The notes under the pieces are model-generated. The model worked only from the letters and a program-made list of their open reading frames with translations. It was not told the origin of the DNA and did not search any database. The translations under genes were made by a program, and so were the position numbers. Source: Escherichia coli (GTDB taxonomy: Bacteria; Pseudomonadota; Gammaproteobacteria; Enterobacterales; Enterobacteriaceae). From it: a stretch of DNA of 64,000 nucleotides. The DNA is taken from the NCBI RefSeq assembly GCF_003018235.1, contig NZ_CP027437.1, one strand, 5' to 3'. Shown here in pieces: positions 3,657 to 27,180 of this stretch (its first letter is position 1; every line of letters begins with the position of its first letter).

Positions 3657-4682
3657 ATTGAGATCGCTTAACAGAACGGCGATGCTTTGACCTCCCGCTG
3701 TTTGTTCAAGCGCAATTTTGACAATAATTGTCAACGGCACGGAAAGCAGCATACCCACCGGTCCTAACAACCATCCCCAAAAAATCAACGACAAAAATAC
3801 CACCAATGTCGAAAGCCCCAGCCCACGTCCCATGATGCGCGGCTCCAGAATATTGCCGAAGACCAGATTAATCAGCAGATATCCCGCCAGCACCAGCAAC
3901 GCTTCGTAGAAGCCATTAAACACCAGTACCTGAGCGATAGGGGGGATTGCCGCGAGAACTGAACCAATATTCGGGATGTAATTAAGCGCAAAGGCCAGCA
4001 ATCCCCAGACAAAAGCGAAGCGAACATCGAGTGCGGCGAGCATCGCCCAGGCGACCAGGCCGGTGATGATGCTGATGGCTGTTTTCAGCACCAGATAATG
4101 AGACACACTGTCAATCGCACGCTGAATCGCCGCCATCCCTTCAACCGGACGCGCCATCATTTGCTGAAATTTTCCGGGCAATTGTGGCACTTCGAGCAAC
4201 ATAAACAGCACCGTCAGCAGCAATAAAAATATTGATGACATGGCATTAGATAACTGCGTCAATAAGTTGGTGAGCAACGTCATCGCCGCGTTCGGATCAA
4301 TGTAATGCGCCAGTTGGTCAACTGAGACATCAATCCCTACGCGTTGCAACAACGGTTCAATCGCTTGCAGCGGCGTCATAATAGAGTTGCGATATTGCGG
4401 TAACGTCCGCGTCAACTCGTTGAGCGCGGAACCCAGATAAGCTAATAGCAACACCATCGCCATCACGATGATGGTCATCAAAATCGACACTGCCAGTACA
4501 CGCGGCACACGCCAGCGGACCATGTGTTGCACCAGCGGGTTAAGAATAACAGCAATAAATAATGCGAGAATAAACGGCACGATGATCTCGGCGGCAAAAC
4601 GGATACCGCAGAGAATAATGACCAGCATTCCCAACATAATGACGATTTTTAGGCCATTGAGCGTGATGATCGGCTTTGCCAT
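3648..4682 (-). CDS. tqsA: AI-2 exporter / AI-2E family transporter TqsA (YdgG)
   Basis: 344-aa polytopic membrane protein; size and synteny match ydgG/tqsA. Confidence 0.85.
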
Positions 4683-13473: not shown

Positions 13474-14088
13474 CTATCGAAAGAGTGGTTTAACCGCGAC
13501 AGGAATTAACAGTTGTGATTGCCATTGCGCCAGCGTTAAGCGAGCCAGTTCACCCAGTGCACGGTAGAAAGGGTGTTCTGCTTTTTCGATAAAAACGTCA
13601 AGAAAACGTGTTGACCACGGAAAAAGGTGCCATGCCAGCAATTCTTCGCATTCTGTCTGGCGACCATTCTCCGCCAACCACGCAGCCATCAACAGCAGTG
13701 AACCAAAATGATCTTCCGGTTCGTTTTGCTGCATTTCAAACTGAATGCCTTTCTCGCGCATCCACTGACGAAGTGCCAATGTTGAATCGCCAAACAGCAC
13801 AGATTCGCGATCCAGCCAGACCGACCCCCACGGCGGTGATGGCAGAGCCCACGGACCGACAAACAAACGCTGCCAGGCCTGGGCGCGAGTCTCTTCACTC
13901 TGTGCCTGAAAAGCCGTCACCAGCGGCGCTAATGACGCTTCTGGTAGAGGCCACTGAGTTTCCCAGCCGTCACGGGTGAGTACCGCAACCAGGGGGGCGG
14001 CTTCCGCACTCTCTGGAGCGTAATAAAACAGCGCGCCCAACACGCGCGCCGCGACAGAAAAATTATCTTGCTGTGAAAAATGGGTCAT
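13474..14088 (-). CDS. dmsD: Tat proofreading chaperone DmsD
   Basis: 204 aa from MTHFSQQDNFSVAARVLGALFYYAPESAEAAPLVAVL; last gene of the ynfEFGH-dmsD cluster. Confidence 0.9.
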   Translation of the reverse strand: MTHFSQQDNFSVAARVLGALFYYAPESAEAAPLVAVLTRDGWETQWPLPEASLAPLVTAFQAQSEETRAQAWQRLFVGPWALPSPPWGSVWLDRESVLFGDSTLALRQWMREKGIQFEMQQNEPEDHFGSLLLMAAWLAENGRQTECEELLAWHLFPWSTRFLDVFIEKAEHPFYRALGELARLTLAQWQSQLLIPVAVKPLFR

Positions 14089-14130
14089 TCCTAACATCCT
14101 GAAATGTGCGGGTTGCCCCGCACCAATTTG

Positions 14131-14985
14131 TTAACCTGCAATAGCCATTCCTACCGTCATGTGCAGGCCATAAAAGAGCACACGCCCGATCATCTCACCG
14201 CCAAGTATGAGGATTAGCCCCAGAACAAGTCCGGCAACGTGAGGTTCACGGCGACGAATGAGCGGACAAAGCCAGCATCCTAGACCTGTGCATAACAATA
14301 CCACACGCCAGACCTGTAAGGAGGCGTAATCTGGTACCAGTGCGCTGGCTTGTTGTACGGATGAGTGAATAGACGCCAGAGACAAACCTTGCAGCACAAT
14401 CACCCCGGCACAAGCGATCAGCGCCAGAACGCTAATGATGGCAAATGGTGTGGTATTAAATGTAACGCGGGCTGCCCGCAGAATTGCAGCAGCAAGTATT
14501 GGACCGCTCAATAATACTGTCAGGAAGAAAGCCAGCGTAGTGTAACCGTTATGCCAGGTTGGCACAGTGTCGATTTGATACACGCCGGTCATCATCCAGA
14601 CGAAAATGACGCCGAGCGCCATGCTGACAAGTAACCAGAGTTTCCCCAACGCTTGCGGCATTTTACCGATGATCGCCACCAGCCACCATAATCCGCCAAC
14701 GGCAAAAAATATTGAACCGGCAGCAATCTCGTTACTCAGACCAGAAGCTCCGATTCGATTCAGCGAGTTAAACGCCCGCAGTGGCGATCCCAGGTGCATG
14801 ACAGAGGCAATAAACCCGATGCCCATCAACAGCCAGAGGAAAAACATGCCACGAACAATGTGCTGACGGTCTGCGTCATTTTTGGCGGCGAACCAGCCAA
14901 TTCCGCTAACAATCAGCGCGCCTACTACGCATTGACCCAATACGGTAAAGATAACCAGTGGCCATTCATGCCATCCATTTCCCAT
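14131..14985 (-). CDS. ynfH: DMSO-reductase-type membrane anchor subunit YnfH (DmsC paralogue)
   Basis: 284 aa from MGNGWHEWPLVIFTVLGQCVVGALIV; 8-TM anchor; track ORF has an 80-aa unsupported upstream extension overlapping ynfG. Confidence 0.85.
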   Translation of the reverse strand: MGNGWHEWPLVIFTVLGQCVVGALIVSGIGWFAAKNDADRQHIVRGMFFLWLLMGIGFIASVMHLGSPLRAFNSLNRIGASGLSNEIAAGSIFFAVGGLWWLVAIIGKMPQALGKLWLLVSMALGVIFVWMMTGVYQIDTVPTWHNGYTTLAFFLTVLLSGPILAAAILRAARVTFNTTPFAIISVLALIACAGVIVLQGLSLASIHSSVQQASALVPDYASLQVWRVVLLCTGLGCWLCPLIRRREPHVAGLVLGLILILGGEMIGRVLFYGLHMTVGMAIAG

Positions 14986-14986
14986 T

Positions 14987-15604
14987 TTACACTTCCTCCG
15001 GATTAGCCAGATAACCAGTGGTATCGCCGGTCGGGCGGCTGTTGGCGTTAGGTTTGATAACGATATTGGGTTTTGTGAAATGCGCGCGCGGCAGTGGCGC
15101 GACGGCAGCCAGAGTGCCGTGCTTCTGGCGCAGCTCTTCAATTGGACCGAACTCAAGTGCACGCAGCGGGCAGGATTCGACGCATATGGGTTGTTTCCCC
15201 TCGGCGACGCGCGAATAACAACCATCGCACTTCGTCATGTGCCCTTTTTCAGCATTGTACTGTGGCGCGCCGTACGGACAAGCCATGTGGCAGTAGCGGC
15301 AGCCGATACAAACATCTTCATCAACCACCACAAAGCCATCTTCACGCTTATGCATTGCGCCGCTGGGGCAGACTTTTGTACATGCGGGGTCATCGCAATG
15401 GTTACAGGAGATGGAGAGATAATAAGCGAACACGTTCTGGTGCCAGACGCCATTATCTTCCTGCCAGTCGCCGCCAGCATATTCATAAATACGGCGGAAA
15501 CTGACTTCCGGGCCAAGATCTTTAAAATCTTTGCACGCCAGTTCGCAGGTTTTACAGCCAGTACAGCGGCTGGAATCGATAAAAAATCCATATTGTGTGG
15601 TCAT
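14987..15604 (-). CDS. ynfG: DMSO-reductase-type 4Fe-4S subunit YnfG (DmsB paralogue)
   Basis: 205 aa with four ferredoxin-type Cys clusters (CTGCKTCELAC, CNHCDDPACTKVC, CIGCRYCHMACP, CDGCYSRVAEGKQPICVESCP). Confidence 0.9.
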   Translation of the reverse strand: MTTQYGFFIDSSRCTGCKTCELACKDFKDLGPEVSFRRIYEYAGGDWQEDNGVWHQNVFAYYLSISCNHCDDPACTKVCPSGAMHKREDGFVVVDEDVCIGCRYCHMACPYGAPQYNAEKGHMTKCDGCYSRVAEGKQPICVESCPLRALEFGPIEELRQKHGTLAAVAPLPRAHFTKPNIVIKPNANSRPTGDTTGYLANPEEV

Positions 15605-15614
15605 GGGCTACTCC

Positions 15615-18038
15615 TTAAACCTTTTCGATCTGGACAAGATTGCTGTGCGACGGGTTTCCCTTTGCCAGCGGTGAAGGGCGGTGAGAGGTCAGAATATTGA
15701 TACTGCCGCCGTGATCGACCCGGTCACCAAACATATCCGCTTTAAGCCACGCACCTTGCCCGATGGCGGTAACGCCAGGCAGAATACGCGGAGTCACTTT
15801 TGCGGCAATCAGCATTTCTCCATTATTGTTAAATACCCGCACGGTATCGCCATGACGGATACCGCGTGCCTGAGCATCAATAGGGTTTATCCACACCTCT
15901 TGTGGGCAGGCCTGCTGTAACACATCAATATTGCCGTAGCTGGAGTGGGTACGCGCTTTGTAGTGGAAGCCCGTTAGCTGCAGTGGATAGGTTTTCCGCA
16001 GGGGATCGTCCCAGCCATCAAAACCTGGGGTATACGCAGGAAGGGGATGAATAATTTCATCTTTTTTCAATTCCCAGGTATCCGCAATCGTCGCCAGTCG
16101 TTCAGAATAAATTTCGATTTTCCCCGAAGGTGTTTTCAACGGGTTTGCCTGTGGATCTTCACGGAATGCGCGGAAAGCGACGTAGTGTTCTTCCGGGCAT
16201 TTTTTCTTAAAGATCCCGGTCGTTTTCATCTCCTCGTAGTCGGGCATCTCAGGGTTACGTTCCTTCGTTTTCGCATGGAGATATTTGATCCATTCGTGCT
16301 GACTGCGGCCTTCAGTAAAGGTTTGATAAACGTCTGGTCCTAAGCGTTTGGCGACTTCACTCAGCATCCAGTAGATGGGTTTGCGTTCAAATTTTGCTGA
16401 GGTTGCGGGTTGGGCGAGGATCACATAGCCCATATTCCCGGCAGATTCGTGAGAGATAAGGTCTTCTTGCTCTGTTGGCATCAGGTCGGGCAACAGGATA
16501 TCGCAATACTTAGCCGAGGCAGTCATGAAGTGGTCAATGCCAACAATCATCTCGCACTTGCTGTCATCCTGAAGCACCTCATGGGTGTGATTGATGTCGC
16601 CATGTTGATTGATCAATGTGTTACTGGCGTAGCACCATAAAAACTTGATGGGGACATCCAGTTTTTCTTTTCCACGAACACCATCACGGGTCGCGGTCAT
16701 TTCCGTACCGTGGTCGATGGCATCTGTCCATGTAAAGACGGAAATCTGCGTTTTAACAGGATTCTCAAGCATCGGGAACCATTCTACCCCCAGATCCCAG
16801 CTACCTTCGCGTACACCTGAGTTGCCGCCGTTTATGCCGACGTTACCGGTGAGAACGGAAAGCATGGCAATAGCGCGGGACGTTTGTTCGCCGTTGGAGT
16901 GTCGTTGTGGCCCCCAACCCTGACAAATATAAGCAGGTTTTGCTGAACCGATCTCTCGTGCCAACTGGATAATTTTTTCTGCCGGGATGCTGGTGATTTT
17001 TGCTGCCCATTCCGGCGTTTTAGCTATGCCGTCAGGCCCTTCGCCCAGAATATAGGCTTTATAATGCGCGTTACGTGGTGCGTTGGCGGGCAGCGTTTTT
17101 TCATCGTAACCAACACAATATTTGTCGAGAAATGGCTGATCGACCATGTTTTCAGTAATCAGTACCCAGGCAATCGCACAGGCCAGTGCGCCATCGGTGC
17201 CTGGGCGAATTGGCAGCCATTCATCTTCACGCCCGGCAGCAGTGTCGTTATAACGTGGATCGATGACGATCATGCGTGCGTTTGAACGTTCTCGGGCTTG
17301 CTCGACGTAGTAAGTGACACCACCGCCGCTCATCCGGGTTTCTGCCGGGTTATTTCCGAACATAACGACCAGTTTCGTATTGGCTATATCATCCGGGCTG
17401 TTGCCATCATTGGCACCGAACATATAACTCATTGCGGCACTGATTTGAGCGGTACTGTAGCTGCCATAGCGACTGAGAAAACCACCGCAAGAGTTCATCA
17501 GACGGTACGGGACGTTCGAGTTGGTGATGTTTCCGCCATCTACGCCTGTTCCGTACAGGACATGTACAGCCTCATTGCCGTATTCTTTCAGGATCCGCCG
17601 AAGATTATCACTGATGGTATCCAGGGCTTCATCCCAACTTATCCGTTCAAATTTACCTTCACCGCGCTTGCCGACGCGCTTCATGGGATATTTCAACCTA
17701 TCAGGATGATTCATCCGTCGGCGGATAGAGCGCCCGCGTAAACACGCCCGAACCTGATGATTACCGTAGACGTCGTCACCTGTCGTATCAGACTCCACCC
17801 AGTACACGGTGTCATCTTTCACATGCAAACGTAACAGACAGCGGCTCCCGCAGTTAACGGTGCAGGAACTCCAGACCGCTTTCTCTTCTACCGGTGCCTC
17901 TGCCGCTCGGACCATTTGGGAAAATGGCAGAGTGAAAGCACTGCTTGCCAGCGCAAGACTGCCAAGTGCGGAGGTTTTCATCAGACTTCTACGGCTGATT
18001 TCAGCCTTCATGAGCGCCTCTGTGGTATGGATTTTCAT
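15615..18038 (-). CDS. ynfF: Molybdopterin oxidoreductase catalytic subunit YnfF (DmsA paralogue, selenate/DMSO reductase family)
   Basis: 807 aa from MKIHTTEALMKAEISRRSLMK (twin-arginine signal), N-terminal Cys cluster CTVNCGSRC, molybdopterin-binding domains. Confidence 0.9.
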   Translation of the reverse strand: MKIHTTEALMKAEISRRSLMKTSALGSLALASSAFTLPFSQMVRAAEAPVEEKAVWSSCTVNCGSRCLLRLHVKDDTVYWVESDTTGDDVYGNHQVRACLRGRSIRRRMNHPDRLKYPMKRVGKRGEGKFERISWDEALDTISDNLRRILKEYGNEAVHVLYGTGVDGGNITNSNVPYRLMNSCGGFLSRYGSYSTAQISAAMSYMFGANDGNSPDDIANTKLVVMFGNNPAETRMSGGGVTYYVEQARERSNARMIVIDPRYNDTAAGREDEWLPIRPGTDGALACAIAWVLITENMVDQPFLDKYCVGYDEKTLPANAPRNAHYKAYILGEGPDGIAKTPEWAAKITSIPAEKIIQLAREIGSAKPAYICQGWGPQRHSNGEQTSRAIAMLSVLTGNVGINGGNSGVREGSWDLGVEWFPMLENPVKTQISVFTWTDAIDHGTEMTATRDGVRGKEKLDVPIKFLWCYASNTLINQHGDINHTHEVLQDDSKCEMIVGIDHFMTASAKYCDILLPDLMPTEQEDLISHESAGNMGYVILAQPATSAKFERKPIYWMLSEVAKRLGPDVYQTFTEGRSQHEWIKYLHAKTKERNPEMPDYEEMKTTGIFKKKCPEEHYVAFRAFREDPQANPLKTPSGKIEIYSERLATIADTWELKKDEIIHPLPAYTPGFDGWDDPLRKTYPLQLTGFHYKARTHSSYGNIDVLQQACPQEVWINPIDAQARGIRHGDTVRVFNNNGEMLIAAKVTPRILPGVTAIGQGAWLKADMFGDRVDHGGSINILTSHRPSPLAKGNPSHSNLVQIEKV

Positions 18039-18098
18039 CATTACTCACTTATTGCTTTTCAAACAAAATGTCATGTCAGAATTTATGGTTGTAGTGGG

Positions 18099-20524
18099 TT
18101 ATATTTTTTCGATCTCGACCAGATTAGTGTGCTGCGGGTTTCCCTTCGCCAGTGGTGAAGGGCGCAGAGTGGTTAGCGTATTCACACAGCCGCCATGGTC
18201 GATTTTATCGCCAGACATATTGGCCTCGTGCCAGGCTCCCTGGCCCATAGCGCTAACCCCAGGGAGAATGCGTGGTGTCACTTTGGCTGGTAGCCGAACT
18301 TCGCCACGATGGTTATACACCCGCACCATATCGCCGTTGGCAATCCCACGTTTCTGTGCGTCTATAGGGTTGATCCACACCTCCTGACGGCAGGCAGCCT
18401 TCAGGACATCAATGTTGCCGTAGGTCGAGTGAGTACGGGATTTGTAATGGAAACCGAACAGTTGCAGTGGAAAGGTACTACGTTCAGGGGAGTCCCAGCC
18501 TTCAAAGGTTGAGGCATAAACCGGCAGTGGGCTTATCACTTCATCTTTTTCCAGTTCCCAGGTACGGGCAATTTCCGCCAGCTTGCTGGAATAAATTTCA
18601 ATCTTACCGGAAGGCGTTTTAAGTGGATTTGCCTCGGGGTCGTCACGAAATGCTTTGTAGGCGACAAAATGACCATTGGGATCTTTACGCTTATAGATAC
18701 CCATTTTTTTCAGTTCGTCGTAAGACGGTAACGCCGGATCTTTGGCAAGCATTTTGGCGTACAGATGTTGTAACCATTGTTCCTGCGTGCGACCTTCTGT
18801 GAACTTTTGATAGACGTCAGGTCCAAGACGTTTCGCGACCTCACTCAGGATCCAGTAAATCGGTTTGCGTTCGAATTTTTCGCTGGTGACTGGCTGAAGG
18901 AAAATGAGATATCCCATGTTACCGGCGTAGTCGTTAGGAATAATATCTTCCTGCTCAACGGTCATCAGGTCTGGCAGCAGAATGTCGGCATATTTTGCCG
19001 ATGAGGTCATAAAGTTTTCGATGACCACAATCATTTCGCATTTCGATTCGTCCTGCAGAATTTCATGCGTTTTGTTGATGTCAGAATGCTGATTAACGAG
19101 GGTATTTCCCGCATAGTTCCAGATGAACTTAATGGGCACATCCAGTTTATCTTTGCCCCGGACACCGTCGCGGATTGCCGTCATTTGCGGGCCATGATCG
19201 ATAGCATCTGTCCAGCTGAAGCAGGAGATTGACGTTTTGACCGGATTATCCAGCACCGGTAGGCGTTCTATGGTAATGGTATAGGTCGATTCACGCGCGC
19301 CACTATTCCCGCCGCTGATGCCGACATTGCCCGTCAGAATAGGCAACATCGCAATAGCACGTGCAGTCAGCTCGCCGTTTGCCTGGCGTTGCGGTCCCCA
19401 GCCCTGGCAGATATAAGCGGGTTTTGCTGTGCCAATTTCACGCGCCAGTTTGATGATACGGTCCACCGGGATACCGGTAATTTGCGAAGCCCACTGCGGC
19501 GTTTTCGCTGTTTTATCGTCACCTTCACCAAGAATATAGGCTTTATAGTGACCATTTTTTGGTGCATCTGCGGGTAAGGTTTTTTCGTCATAGCCGACGC
19601 AGTATTTATCGAGAAAAGGTTGATCAACGAGATTTTCGTTAATCAATACCCAGGCAATACCCGCAACCAGCGCGGCATCGGTGCCCGGGCGAATAGGTTG
19701 CCATTCGTCTTCACGACCAGCAGCTGTATCGGTATATCGCGGATCGATAACAATCATTTTGCGTTCGATTTCTCGCGCGCTTTTTCAAGAAGATAAGTGA
19801 TGCCACCGCCGCTCATGCGGGTTTCTGCCGGGTTGTTACCAAACATCACGACCAGCTTGCTGTTTTCAATATCCGTGGTGCTGTTGCCATCATTACTGCC
19901 GTAGGTGTAGGGCATGGCACAGGAAATTTGCGCGGTGCTGTAGGAGCCATACTGGTTGAGTGAACCGCCGTAGCAGTTCATCAGGCGTTTGACCGCCGAG
20001 GCGGATGGCGAAGAGCGGGTCATATTGCCGCCAACGATCCCTGAAGAGTACTGAATATATACAGCCTCATTGCCATATTGTTCGACGGTTTTTTTCAGGC
20101 TACTGGCGATAGTATCCAGGGCTTCATCCCAGCTAATCCGTTCGAATTTGCCTTCGCCGCGTTTGCCCACGCGTTTCATTGGGTAATTCAAGCGATCGGG
20201 ATGATTAATACGCCGACGGATGGAGCGACCGCGCAAACAGGCACGTACTTGATGATTGCCATACTCGTCGTTGCCGGTGTTGTCAGTTTCCACCCAGGTC
20301 ACTTCATTATCTTTAACATGCAGACGAAGTGCACAGCGGCTACCACAGTTGACGGAACAGGCACCACAGAGCACTTTCTCGCTGGCCTGTTGTACCGCTG
20401 CCGCTGCACTGCGCAGGGTGAACGGTAAAGAAAAACCGCCTGCAGCCAGCGCCAGAGAACCTATCGCGGTAGATTTAACGAGTGTTCTGCGGCTGATGCC
20501 CACCATTTGTTCATTTTTGGACAT
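18099..20524 (-). pseudogene. ynfE: ynfE (DmsA-type catalytic subunit) interrupted by a 1-bp frameshift in a homopolymer run
   Basis: Two adjacent ORFs in different frames (19754..20524, 256 aa, twin-arginine N-terminus MSKNEQMVGISRRTLVK; 18099..19757, 552 aa, begins MIVIDPRY) together align collinearly with intact YnfF; junction reads gca aaa tga ttg on the coding strand, where the paralogue has an in-frame ...NAR-MIVIDPRY. Confidence 0.75.
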
Positions 20525-20623
20525 AACTCACTCCCTGTTCTTTATCGTTATATAAAAGTTTATATATTGAATATTTAGCGCGCTAACAATAGAGGGAGTC
20601 TACCTATTTTGGGTTAAGAATTA

Positions 20624-20637
20624 TTAATCCATATCAA
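20624..20637. promoter_or_regulatory. Candidate FNR-type site upstream of ynfE operon
   Basis: TTAAT-CCAT-ATCAA, one mismatch from TTGAT-N4-ATCAA, centred ~106 bp upstream of ynfE start codon; anaerobic-respiration operon context. Confidence 0.3.
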
Positions 20638-20722
20638 TAGAAGGGTATGAGTAATAAGGTGGGATTATGTTGTATGTTCAAATCGCCGGATGTGTCGTAT
20701 CCGGCGTGCAGTCGATAATGTG

Positions 20723-21028
20723 TTACTGCGGTTCGGCAGGCGCGCCATCCTGGGTAGACTGCGCGGGAGCAGAGACGTTACCGCTGGTGGTGCGGGTGTA
20801 GAGAATTTTATGCGTATCATTAGCGCAATGCCCGACGACCTGGGAATCAGGCTGATCAACCTGGTCATTGGGTACAATACTTAACGTGAAGCTGCTTTCG
20901 GGTACGCCATTATTGATAATGCGCTGTGATATATCGCTCTGTATGCGCTCACAGGATCCCGGCGCGGCGAGTACCGCGGGTGAGGCGAGGGCGAGCAGAA
21001 GCGCGGCACAGCAGGTTGAGAGTTTCAT
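20723..21028 (-). CDS. ynfD: Secreted DUF1161-type protein YnfD
   Basis: 101 aa from MKLSTCCAALLLALASPAVLA (signal peptide); synteny between ynfE and ynfC. Confidence 0.75.
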   Translation of the reverse strand: MKLSTCCAALLLALASPAVLAAPGSCERIQSDISQRIINNGVPESSFTLSIVPNDQVDQPDSQVVGHCANDTHKILYTRTTSGNVSAPAQSTQDGAPAEPQ

Positions 21029-21135
21029 CATAAGCTCCTTACGCGAAGATAACTTCTCTAAGCATAGCATTTAACGTGTAAAGTACTGTATTTGCTACTA
21101 TGATTGAGAATCATCTCTACTCTCTGGTGACTGTT

Positions 21136-21846
21136 GTGAAATACAAATTACTGCCATGCTTACTCGCGATATTCCTCACAGGATGTGACCGCACAGAGGT
21201 AACACTTTCCTTTACCCCTGAGATGGCCAGTTTCTCTAATGAATTCGATTTTGATCCGCTGCGTGGTCCGGTAAAAGATTTCACTCAGACATTAATGGAT
21301 GAGCAAGGTGAAGTGACGAAACGTGTTTCGGGGACTTTGTCGGAAGAAGGCTGTTTTGATTCACTCGAATTACTGGATCTGGAAAATAATACCGTGGTTG
21401 CCCTGGTACTGGACGCCAATTATTACCGTGATGCCCAGACACTGGAGAAAAGAGTTCGTTTGCAGGGAAAATGCCAGCTAGCAGAATTACCTTCTGCCGG
21501 GGTGAGTTGGGAAACCGATGATAATGGCTTTGTGATTAAAGCCAGCAGCAAACAGATGCAGATGGAATATCGCTATGATGATCAGGGTTATCCGCTGGGT
21601 AAAACCACGAAAAGTAACGACAAAACATTATCTGTTAGCGCTACGCCATCAACGGATCCGATCAAAAAATTAGATTACACAGCGGTTACTTTACTGAATA
21701 ATCAAAGGGTTGGTAATGTAAAACAGAGCTGTGAATATGACAGTCACGCCAATCCGGTGGACTGTCAGCTAATCATTGTTGATGAAGGAGTAAAACCCGC
21801 CGTCGAACGGGTTTACACCATCAAAAATACTATCGATTATTATTAA
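21136..21846 (+). CDS. ynfC: UPF0257 lipoprotein YnfC
   Basis: 236 aa from GTG 21136 giving MKYKLLPCLLAIFLTGCDRTEV (lipobox LTGC); no in-frame ATG at the expected start. Confidence 0.75.
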   Translation: MKYKLLPCLLAIFLTGCDRTEVTLSFTPEMASFSNEFDFDPLRGPVKDFTQTLMDEQGEVTKRVSGTLSEEGCFDSLELLDLENNTVVALVLDANYYRDAQTLEKRVRLQGKCQLAELPSAGVSWETDDNGFVIKASSKQMQMEYRYDDQGYPLGKTTKSNDKTLSVSATPSTDPIKKLDYTAVTLLNNQRVGNVKQSCEYDSHANPVDCQLIIVDEGVKPAVERVYTIKNTIDYY

Positions 21847-24677: not shown

Positions 24678-25697
24678 ATGAAAAGCATATTAATTGAAAA
24701 ACCGAATCAACTGGCGATTGTCGAACGTGAAATACCCACCCCGTCAGCGGGTGAAGTACGAGTAAAAGTAAAACTTGCCGGAATTTGTGGTTCAGATAGC
24801 CATATTTATCGTGGGCATAATCCTTTTGCGAAATATCCGCGCGTCATTGGTCATGAATTCTTTGGCGTCATTGATGCAGTGGGTGAAGGCGTGGAAAGCG
24901 CCAGAGTCGGTGAACGTGTTGCAGTCGATCCGGTGGTCAGCTGTGGGCATTGCTATCCGTGCTCTATAGGTAAACCGAACGTTTGTACGACACTGGCTGT
25001 ATTAGGTGTGCACGCTGACGGTGGTTTCAGTGAATATGCCGTGGTGCCGGCAAAAAATGCGTGGAAAATTCCTGAAGCAGTGGCCGATCAATATGCGGTG
25101 ATGATCGAACCTTTTACCATTGCGGCTAACGTTACCGGTCATGGTCAACCGACTGAAAATGATACCGTTCTGGTTTACGGTGCCGGTCCAATCGGCCTGA
25201 CGATCGTTCAGGTATTAAAAGGCGTCTATAACGTTAAGAATGTGATTGTTGCCGATCGCATTGATGAACGACTGGAAAAAGCGAAAGAGAGCGGGGCAGA
25301 CTGGGCGATTAATAACAGCCAGACACCGCTTGGCGAGATTTTCGCTGAAAAAGGCATAAAGCCGACATTAATTATCGATGCGGCTTGTCATCCTTCAATC
25401 CTGAAAGAAGCCGTAACGCTGGCTTCTCCAGCGGCACGTATTGTATTGATGGGCTTCTCCAGTGAACCGTCTGAAGTGATTCAGCAAGGAATTACCGGAA
25501 AAAAACTCTCTATTTTCTCTTCACGCTTAAATGCAAATAAATTTCCGGTCGTTATCGACTGGTTAAGTAAAGGGTTAATTAAACCAGAAAAATTAATTAC
25601 CCATACGTTTGATTTCCAGCATGTTGCTGATGCCATTAGTTTATTTGAACAGGATCAAAAACATTGCTGCAAAGTCTTACTCACTTTTTCTGAATAA
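24678..25697 (+). CDS. rspB: Zinc-dependent alcohol/sugar dehydrogenase RspB
   Basis: 339 aa from MKSILIEKPNQLAIVEREIPTPSAGEVRVKVKLAGICGSDSHIYRG; MDR zinc-ligand motifs; RBS AAGGAG. Confidence 0.9.
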   Translation: MKSILIEKPNQLAIVEREIPTPSAGEVRVKVKLAGICGSDSHIYRGHNPFAKYPRVIGHEFFGVIDAVGEGVESARVGERVAVDPVVSCGHCYPCSIGKPNVCTTLAVLGVHADGGFSEYAVVPAKNAWKIPEAVADQYAVMIEPFTIAANVTGHGQPTENDTVLVYGAGPIGLTIVQVLKGVYNVKNVIVADRIDERLEKAKESGADWAINNSQTPLGEIFAEKGIKPTLIIDAACHPSILKEAVTLASPAARIVLMGFSSEPSEVIQQGITGKKLSIFSSRLNANKFPVVIDWLSKGLIKPEKLITHTFDFQHVADAISLFEQDQKHCCKVLLTFSE

Positions 25698-25754: not shown

Positions 25755-25883
25755 ATGACAATAGAAAAACACGAAAGAAGCACTAAGGATTTGGTGAAAG
25801 CAGCAGTATCGGGATGGCTGGGCACTGCGCTTGAATTTATGGATTTCAAGAGTCATACGTGTCAACTATTTGATAAATATTAA
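25755..25883 (+). pseudogene. ydfJ: 5' fragment of MFS transporter gene ydfJ truncated by prophage insertion
   Basis: ATG 25755 opens MTIEKHERSTKDLVKAAVSGWLGTALEFMDFKSHTCQLFDKY*, a typical MFS N-terminus ending 1 nt before the integrase stop codon; Qin is known to split ydfJ in K-12. Confidence 0.5.
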
Positions 25884-25884
25884 A

Positions 25885-27180
25885 TTAATTTTTCATTGCT
25901 TCGTTATGGGGCATGGTTGGGGCAAACTCGCTTAACTGTGTATTTAACAAAGCTACCTGTGCATTATTGTTTTCAGACATCCATTTTCCGTATACCTGAA
26001 ATACCATTTGCGCATCTGCATGGCCCATCTGGTTTGCTATAAATGCCGGGTTAGCACCAGCTGTCAGCGACCAGCAGGCATAAGTATGTCTCGACTGATA
26101 TGATTTTCGATGGCGGAGTCCGGCACGTTTTATCGCTGCGTCCCACATCTGCCTTATTGAGTCAACGGTAAAATGGTCACCATAATTTTTTACTCTCGCT
26201 GACACTTCAGGTTGAAAAACAAAGGTGCATTTTTGTTTTTCTGTTCTGCCATACTCTCTGAGGTGAACATCAATGATATGCTCTTTGCTCAGTCTCGTTA
26301 ATGTCATCTGACTCCGGAGAGCGTCGATTGCTGGCTTAATAAGATGAATGACCCGATTGGTTCCCGCCTGTGTTTTTGGTACCGTGAAACGGTCTTTTGC
26401 TAAATTTCTCCTGATCATCATTGTTCCATTTTTCAGATCTATGTCCTCCCATCCAAGTGCACACAGCTCACCAGGGCGAACGCCAGTATAAACAGAAACA
26501 CACCATAAATTTTTTGCTTGCTGATTTCTGCACGCATCGATAAGACGGATAAATTCCTCCCGCGAAAGAGGATCCGGAATGGTTCTTGATTCCTTTAATG
26601 GCGAGATCCCCTTAAACGGATTATCTGGCAGGTAACCGTTATCAACACCAAACTGGAACACGGCGTTAAGATTTGTCATGTAATTATTTACAGTTACAGC
26701 CGATCTCCCTGGTTGTGTAACAATATAGTTACTTTTGGGGATCTGGTATCCAGTCAGTAGCTCTTTACGAACCTCCAGTAATTTTTCTTTATTAATCGAT
26801 GAGGCAAGATTTTTTTCACCGATTATGCTCAGGATATTTTTGATGACGGCACGGTATGTGTTGAGTGATGTTTTGGCGACTTCAGTTTCTTTCAGTGCCA
26901 GAAATTTTTCAGCCAGTTCTTTTATGGTTAAATCTTGTCGGGCCTCACCAAATTTTTCCAGATTGCGTGAGGAGGGAAACTGTTTTGCATAGTCGAAAAC
27001 ACCAGTTTTTATTGCGTAACAAACAGAGGAGCGTAGTTCACCTGCAACGCGCCTGTTTTTTGCTGTGTCAGGAACCCCCAGATTTTCCCTGACTCTTACG
27101 CCTTTATAAACAAACCAGATACGTAATTTCCATCCATGGTTTTCCACGCCTGTCGGATATTTCATTTCAACTTCTCTCAT
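25885..27180 (-). CDS. intQ: Prophage tyrosine integrase (lambda Int family), apparently intact
   Basis: 431-aa ORF (alternative start MKYPTGVENHGWKL at 27165); C-terminal catalytic region with R...HxxR...Y residues (RHRKSYQSRHTYACW... MGHADAQMVFQVYGKW); adjacent to attachment junction. Confidence 0.85.
   Translation of the reverse strand: MREVEMKYPTGVENHGWKLRIWFVYKGVRVRENLGVPDTAKNRRVAGELRSSVCYAIKTGVFDYAKQFPSSRNLEKFGEARQDLTIKELAEKFLALKETEVAKTSLNTYRAVIKNILSIIGEKNLASSINKEKLLEVRKELLTGYQIPKSNYIVTQPGRSAVTVNNYMTNLNAVFQFGVDNGYLPDNPFKGISPLKESRTIPDPLSREEFIRLIDACRNQQAKNLWCVSVYTGVRPGELCALGWEDIDLKNGTMMIRRNLAKDRFTVPKTQAGTNRVIHLIKPAIDALRSQMTLTRLSKEHIIDVHLREYGRTEKQKCTFVFQPEVSARVKNYGDHFTVDSIRQMWDAAIKRAGLRHRKSYQSRHTYACWSLTAGANPAFIANQMGHADAQMVFQVYGKWMSENNNAQVALLNTQLSEFAPTMPHNEAMKN

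Follow-up and report, generated by a model that had tools for sequence, protein, structure and literature searches.

The FNR operator upstream of the ynfEFGH-dmsD operon in an Escherichia coli genome: position, conservation and promoter context

Control of the ynfEFGH-dmsD operon (ynfEFGHI) by FNR and nitrate was already described in publications of 2005-2013. In E. coli K-12, Myers et al. (2013, PMC3688515) placed this operon in their Category 1, i.e., direct activation by FNR through one site, and positioned this site at -40.5 from the known transcription start (their Table 1, after EcoCyc and Kim 2012). The same work gives the ynfE ChIP peaks (Table S5), the motif found below the FNR ChIP-seq peak, which is TTGATATGGATTAA with a PWM score of 13.01 (Table S6), and the sigma70 occupancy, which rises from 27 in aerobic to 709 in anaerobic conditions (Table S2). 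It also lists ynfEFGH-dmsD as 'Activated' by FNR (Table S8) and puts the expression of ynfE, ynfF and ynfG at a +O2/-O2 ratio of about 0.027 (Table S12). According to three later citing papers, including PMC6561318, Xu, Busby and Browning (2009) described the promoter as FNR-activated and NarL-repressed. In PMC6561318, a ynfE promoter reporter reproduces this anaerobic and nitrate-repressed behavior, and the reporter data in PMC3547828 agree with an anaerobic FNR activation of the operon.

Two other operons are close to this one. In the paralogous dmsABC operon of E. coli, the dmsA FNR site is located at -41.5 and the promoter is directly activated by FNR (Myers et al. 2013, PMC3688515); a control by both ModE and FNR has also been published for dmsA. 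In Enterobacter cloacae SLD1a-1, the orthologous srnABCD operon, which encodes a Tat-exported molybdoenzyme (a selenate reductase), carries an annotated FNR site, ttgatgaggattaa (2025 paper, PMC12724226). Here, we describe the ynfE locus in a 64-kb stretch of E. coli DNA, called the window hereafter and to which all coordinates refer, and we compare it with these systems.

The FNR site and its K-12 counterpart

The FNR binding site is located at positions 20624-20637, on the minus strand, i.e., in the direction of ynfE. It reads TTAATCCATATCAA (TTAAT-CCAT-ATCAA) on the plus strand and TTGATATGGATTAA (TTGAT-ATGG-ATTAA) in the ynfE direction. Nine of the ten specified positions of the FNR consensus, TTGAT-N4-ATCAA, are respected, and the sole mismatch is a C to T change in the promoter-proximal half-site (ATTAA). 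The distance from the center of the site (20630.5) down to the first base of the ynfE start codon, the A at 20524 on the minus strand, is 106.5 bp. The preliminary description, made from the letters of the window, had announced a TTAAT-N4-ATCAA element one mismatch away from the FNR consensus and about 106 bp upstream of the ynfE start codon, and both statements are confirmed by these measurements.

By itself, the number of FNR motifs in the 64-kb window is at chance level: four one-mismatch matches are present for 3.13 expected, and at least four are obtained in 40 of 100 shuffled sequences. It is its position and its conservation which bring the 20624-20637 site above chance. The three remaining matches are located within a 344-aa ORF (4468-4481), at the 3' end of an ORF ending at 25697 (25645-25658), and between convergent gene ends (25870-25883). 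They look like chance matches and are usable as a control. The context allows one to pick the real operator among chance-level motif matches, from the sequence alone and without tools.

We compared the window with K-12 BW25113 from the FNR site through the ynfE ATG and found a single SNP, at position 20605. The K-12 ynfE ATG is at 1,658,069 in NC_000913.3 and, with a genome version offset that we take to be 1,976 bp, the Table S6 coordinate 1,655,980 presumably corresponds to the first base of the 14-mer. The 14-mer listed in this table and that of the window are identical, so that comparison with the mapped FNR ChIP sites puts exactly this sequence under the ynfE peak of Myers et al. (2013). 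Both the FNR occupancy in vivo and the FNR-dependent anaerobic activation of the operon are thus documented by published K-12 data for the same sequence as in the window. The anaerobic activation by FNR of a Tat-dependent ynfE operon, which had been proposed from the sequence, is in line with these data at three levels (ChIP-seq, sigma70 occupancy, and expression), and the placement near -41.5 that had been suggested for the site corresponds to a published value of -40.5 from the start for the identical K-12 sequence. In conclusion, the 14-mer is almost certainly the published FNR operator of ynfEFGH-dmsD, acting as a class II activation site. The finding is an ordinary one because this site was already known, and the present result is mainly a confirmation.

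The site is also conserved well beyond E. coli. A fetch anchored on YnfD returned 80 loci, with one genome per species, and a YnfE-like gene follows ynfD in 69 loci, i.e., 66 of these 80 and three E. coli loci fetched earlier. The analysis was carried out on 63 sequences: the window and the 62 loci whose YnfE match begins at residue 1. They represent about 20 enterobacterial genera, among which Escherichia, Citrobacter, Salmonella, Enterobacter, Lelliottia, Leclercia, Silvania, and Kosakonia. In 49 of them, a site with at most two mismatches to the FNR consensus precedes the ynfE start codon by 95-112 bp, for a background of 8.4e-4 such matches per position in the rest of the same 200-bp upstream regions. 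The information content is highest at TTGA and TTAA, columns which hardly vary, and the T by which ATTAA departs from the consensus is also maintained across genera. On the other hand, the 4-bp spacer varies (ATGG, ATGC, GAGG, AAGG, ATAC, CGTG, and others), as do the flanks. Conserved half-sites around a variable spacer and within variable flanks are the pattern expected of the site of a dimeric regulator. In Klebsiella and a few other genera, only a degenerate site is present at the same position (TTGAC-N4-GATAA).

Within E. coli, 3737 of 5426 complete genomes contain the exact 35-mer around the FNR site, and another 1297 contain it with one mismatch. A longer segment of 701 bp is present with at least 95% identity in 5383 of these 5426 genomes, and RefSeq annotates ynfD and ynfE at this locus.

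Promoter architecture and alternative readings

A candidate -10 hexamer, TAGACT, follows the FNR 14-mer at a distance of 21 bp, at 20597-20602 (minus strand), and was assigned from the sequence and the alignment. In most other genera, the hexamer is TAAACT, and the GGTA(A/G)ACT block which surrounds it is kept in nearly all of them. There is no recognizable -35 in the ynfE promoter, and a scan for sigma70 consensus promoters over 20400-21200 returned nothing; such an empty scan is expected for an activator-dependent promoter and is uninformative by itself. Arithmetic from the center of the site and the published -40.5 would place the transcription start at 20588-20590 (minus strand): at the A of 20590 for -40.5, the hexamer then extending from -12 to -7, or at 20588 for -42.5. 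The 21-bp distance between the 14-mer and TAGACT fits the -40.5 published for K-12, and the ynfE leader would be about 66 nt long.

In the standard class II arrangement, [4Fe-4S] FNR occupies DNA that includes part of the -35 region and makes contact with RNA polymerase. In anaerobic conditions, the dimeric [4Fe-4S] FNR would bind TTGATATGGATTAA, with its center about 40.5-42.5 bp upstream of the start, and would recruit RNA polymerase to a promoter whose -10 (TAGACT) is weak and which lacks a usable -35. In the presence of nitrate, activated NarL would bind the heptamer, which extends over the upstream edge of the -10, and switch the promoter off. We infer here the exact start and -10 of the present strain, and the protein contacts are those of the general class II FNR model. 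The site accounts for a selenate/tellurate reductase operon made only without oxygen and nitrate.

The NarL/NarP element is a putative remnant of a 7-2-7 site, located at 20601-20616 (plus strand) between the FNR site and the -10, and it was identified by motif match. In the ynfE direction, it reads TAACCCA-AA-ATAGGTA. One heptamer, TACCTAT (20601-20607, plus strand), matches TACYYMT perfectly and extends into the -10 at its upstream end, and the distal one, TAACCCA in the ynfE direction (20610-20616), has two mismatches. If bound there, NarL would block the polymerase, which agrees with the published nitrate repression. Pairs as degenerate as that of Escherichia (two mismatches) occur in the window at chance rate, four being found for 3.0 expected. 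At the same position in the other genera, the 7-2-7 is perfect in 10 of the 63 loci and has at most one mismatch in 27 of the 63. We observed that it is intact in many enterobacterial genera and has decayed to a single good heptamer in Escherichia. The SNP at 20605 falls in this heptamer, which is TACCTAT here and TACCCAT in K-12, and either form fits TACYYMT. The allele of the window is found, as an exact 61-bp match, in 516 of the 5426 complete E. coli genomes.

Further downstream, around the presumed start, a block at 20575-20592 (minus strand) is kept across genera, mostly as CATYATTAGC and as CTATTGTTAGCGCGCTAA in E. coli; the latter contains a 12-bp palindrome, TTAGCGCGCTAA, at 20586-20575. 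This block may be a start-site context or a further protein site. We also considered an RNA element in the leader. The 81 nt going from the presumed start through the first ynfE codons (20510-20590) fold no better than shuffled sequences (z = +1.0), and an RNA element was therefore rejected. An Rfam scan of 20300-21200 at E <= 1 gave one chance match only (BTE, 19 bits for a gathering score of 45), and no Moco or other riboswitch.

The 5' leader carries another dyad, ATTCAATATATAAACTTTTATATAACGAT, at 20544-20572 (minus strand), which resembles a ModE operator. Its core, TATAT-N7-TATAT, lies at 20550-20566, and TATAT-N7-TAYAT is found at this single locus in the window for 0.15 expected. It follows the dyad form CGnTATAT-N7-TAYATAnCG, with an exact core and a right arm (TATATAACG) that matches fully; the left arm (CAATATATA) shows two outer mismatches to the modA and moaA arms. 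The architecture is the same as in the modA, moaA, and dmsA sequences of K-12, and the closest likeness is with the dmsA leader. Among the genera compared, only Escherichia, Citrobacter, and Salmonella retain this dyad, which is absent in Enterobacter and beyond. We tentatively suggest, as a possibility that we hold to be rather unlikely, that it could be a ModE-molybdate operator at about +31, derived from the dmsA/ynfE duplication and retained only in these three genera, and that the conserved ATTAA could reflect a selection holding the affinity for FNR at a submaximal level. In the searchable literature, we found no link between ModE and ynfE other than incidental co-mentions. ModE may be a third input of the ynfE promoter that we did not find described in this literature. 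If this is true, the operon would integrate oxygen (through FNR), nitrate (through NarL), and molybdate (through ModE).

A placement of the FNR site other than class II has to be considered. FNR could act from a class I position (-61.5 or further) on a start located in the leader, where several -10-like TATA strings are found (20545-20570), or it could act on ynfD, which is FNR-repressed in one data set (Myers et al. 2013, Table S8, PMC3688515). However, these TATA strings are those of the ModE-like dyad and are not conserved beyond Escherichia, Citrobacter, and Salmonella, whereas nearly all genera keep the -10-like GGTA(A/G)ACT at the spacing of a class II promoter, and the published placement is -40.5 from the known start. 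As for ynfD, the FNR site is found downstream of its stop codon and of the hairpin that follows it, and therefore cannot be a promoter element of this gene. We thus consider an action from another position as highly improbable.

The nature of the site itself can be questioned in two ways. The 14-mer could be a fortuitous match in AT-rich intergenic DNA, with no regulatory role, and the chance-level frequency of such matches in the window (4 for 3.13), three of which are clearly outside promoters, goes in this direction. On the contrary, published data show an FNR ChIP-seq peak over the exact motif and an expression that depends on FNR, and the half-sites of 49 of the 63 loci stay at a constant distance while the spacer drifts, far from a background of 8.4e-4 per position. 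Alternatively, another protein of the CRP/FNR family, such as CRP, could use the site instead of FNR. The dyads recognized by CRP and by FNR are related, and the ATTAA half-site has no C as a symmetric counterpart to the discriminating G of TTGAT. The half-site preferred by CRP is GTGA, though, and the conserved half-site is TTGAT or TTGAC; moreover, ChIP of FNR and fnr-dependent expression have been published for this very site. On the basis of these published FNR ChIP and expression data, of the half-site sequence, and of the conservation across genera, we rejected both the chance match, to which we accord virtually no probability, and the use by CRP, for which the probability is just as negligible. 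The class II operator of FNR is the reading that we retain.

The ynfE operon and its neighborhood

In the ynfE direction (minus strand), the genes follow one another in the order ynfB, speG, ynfC, ynfD, ynfE, ynfF, ynfG, ynfH, and dmsD, and the order within the operon agrees with the RefSeq annotation of homologous E. coli loci. The ynfE ATG (20524-20522) is preceded by a Shine-Dalgarno sequence, AGGGAG (20531-20536). The ORF which starts at 20524 has NCBIfam selenate_YnfE as its best match and corresponds to RefSeq ynfE in the homologous E. coli loci, and the N-terminus of YnfE contains a twin-arginine motif, SRRTLVK. The rest of the operon (13474-18041, minus strand) is apparently intact, as judged from the ORF lists, and is composed of ynfF (15615-18041; NCBIfam selenate_YnfF, 1774 bits for a cut-off of 1650), ynfG (14987-15604), ynfH (about 14131-14985), and dmsD (13474-14097), all on the minus strand.

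In this genome, a 1-bp deletion near 19762 breaks ynfE (18099-20524, minus strand) into ORFs of 256 and 552 aa. The lost base is one C (GCC to GC) within 19755-19765, where the K-12 sequence GCCAAAATG becomes GCAAAATGA in the window. The resulting ORFs cover 19754-20524 and 18099-19757, the new TGA overlapping a native in-frame ATG. The 61-mer carrying the frameshift is present at 99% identity or above in only 2 of 5296 E. coli genomes. One of these two is strain LR-48, which is K-12-like and has the same deletion, and its ynfE is labeled 'frameshifted' in RefSeq. Because LR-48 shares this deletion while the nearest relative of the window, 19KM1831, has an intact ynfE without it, the deletion would be either recurrent or a sequencing error. 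If the first gene is really broken, the physiological output of the FNR activation may be lower.

Upstream of the promoter, a hairpin with an 8-bp stem (CGCCGGAU...AUCCGGCG) is found at 20684-20706 (minus strand), directly downstream of the ynfD stop codon. Its minimum free energy is -13.7 kcal/mol (z = -3.7), and its U tract is weak. A scan for intrinsic terminators over 20400-21200 made no call, including at this hairpin. In other genera, a different GC-rich hairpin (CCCTCCG...CGGAGGG) occupies the same place. The hairpin is probably the ynfD terminator and would separate the transcription unit of ynfD from that of ynfE.

At some distance from the operon, at about 25756-27180, we observed the start of a short ORF (MTIEKHERSTKDLVK...) downstream of an rspB-like ORF, followed by a 431-aa ORF on the minus strand. 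As a related genome has a site-specific integrase at the corresponding place, a prophage or an island may be inserted beside rspB, as is Qin in K-12.

The locus beside known systems

Beyond the confirmation of the operator, this locus offers modest leads for the regulation of molybdoenzyme operons, namely the ModE-like dyad that ynfE has in common with dmsA, the reduction of the NarL 7-2-7 to one heptamer in Escherichia, and the possibly recurrent frameshift of ynfE.

The closest described system is ynfEFGH-dmsD of K-12, which corresponds to the very same locus. K-12 has the same sequence for the 14-mer, the -10 region, the leader, and the start of ynfE, and it differs from the window by the SNP at 20605 in the NarL heptamer and by a ynfE devoid of the 1-bp frameshift deletion. 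In the paralogous dmsABC operon, the FNR site upstream of P1 (TTGATACCGAACAA in K-12) differs in sequence from that of ynfE. The dmsA leader nevertheless contains, downstream of its FNR site, a ModE-type dyad, ATTCGATGTATACAAGCCTATATAGCGAA, which is close to the dyad of the ynfE leader, and the spacing between the centers of the FNR and ModE-like elements is about 91 bp for dmsA and about 72 bp for ynfE. In the srnABCD operon of E. cloacae, the FNR site has the same half-sites as ynfE, including the non-consensus ATTAA, but its spacer differs; this same ttgatgaggattaa is also present in the Enterobacter loci that we fetched. Unlike ynfEFGH-dmsD, with its ynfE/ynfF pair, srnABCD has one gene for the catalytic subunit. 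Finally, the Enterobacter loci possess an intact NarL 7-2-7 and are devoid of the ModE-like dyad, in contrast to ynfE of E. coli.
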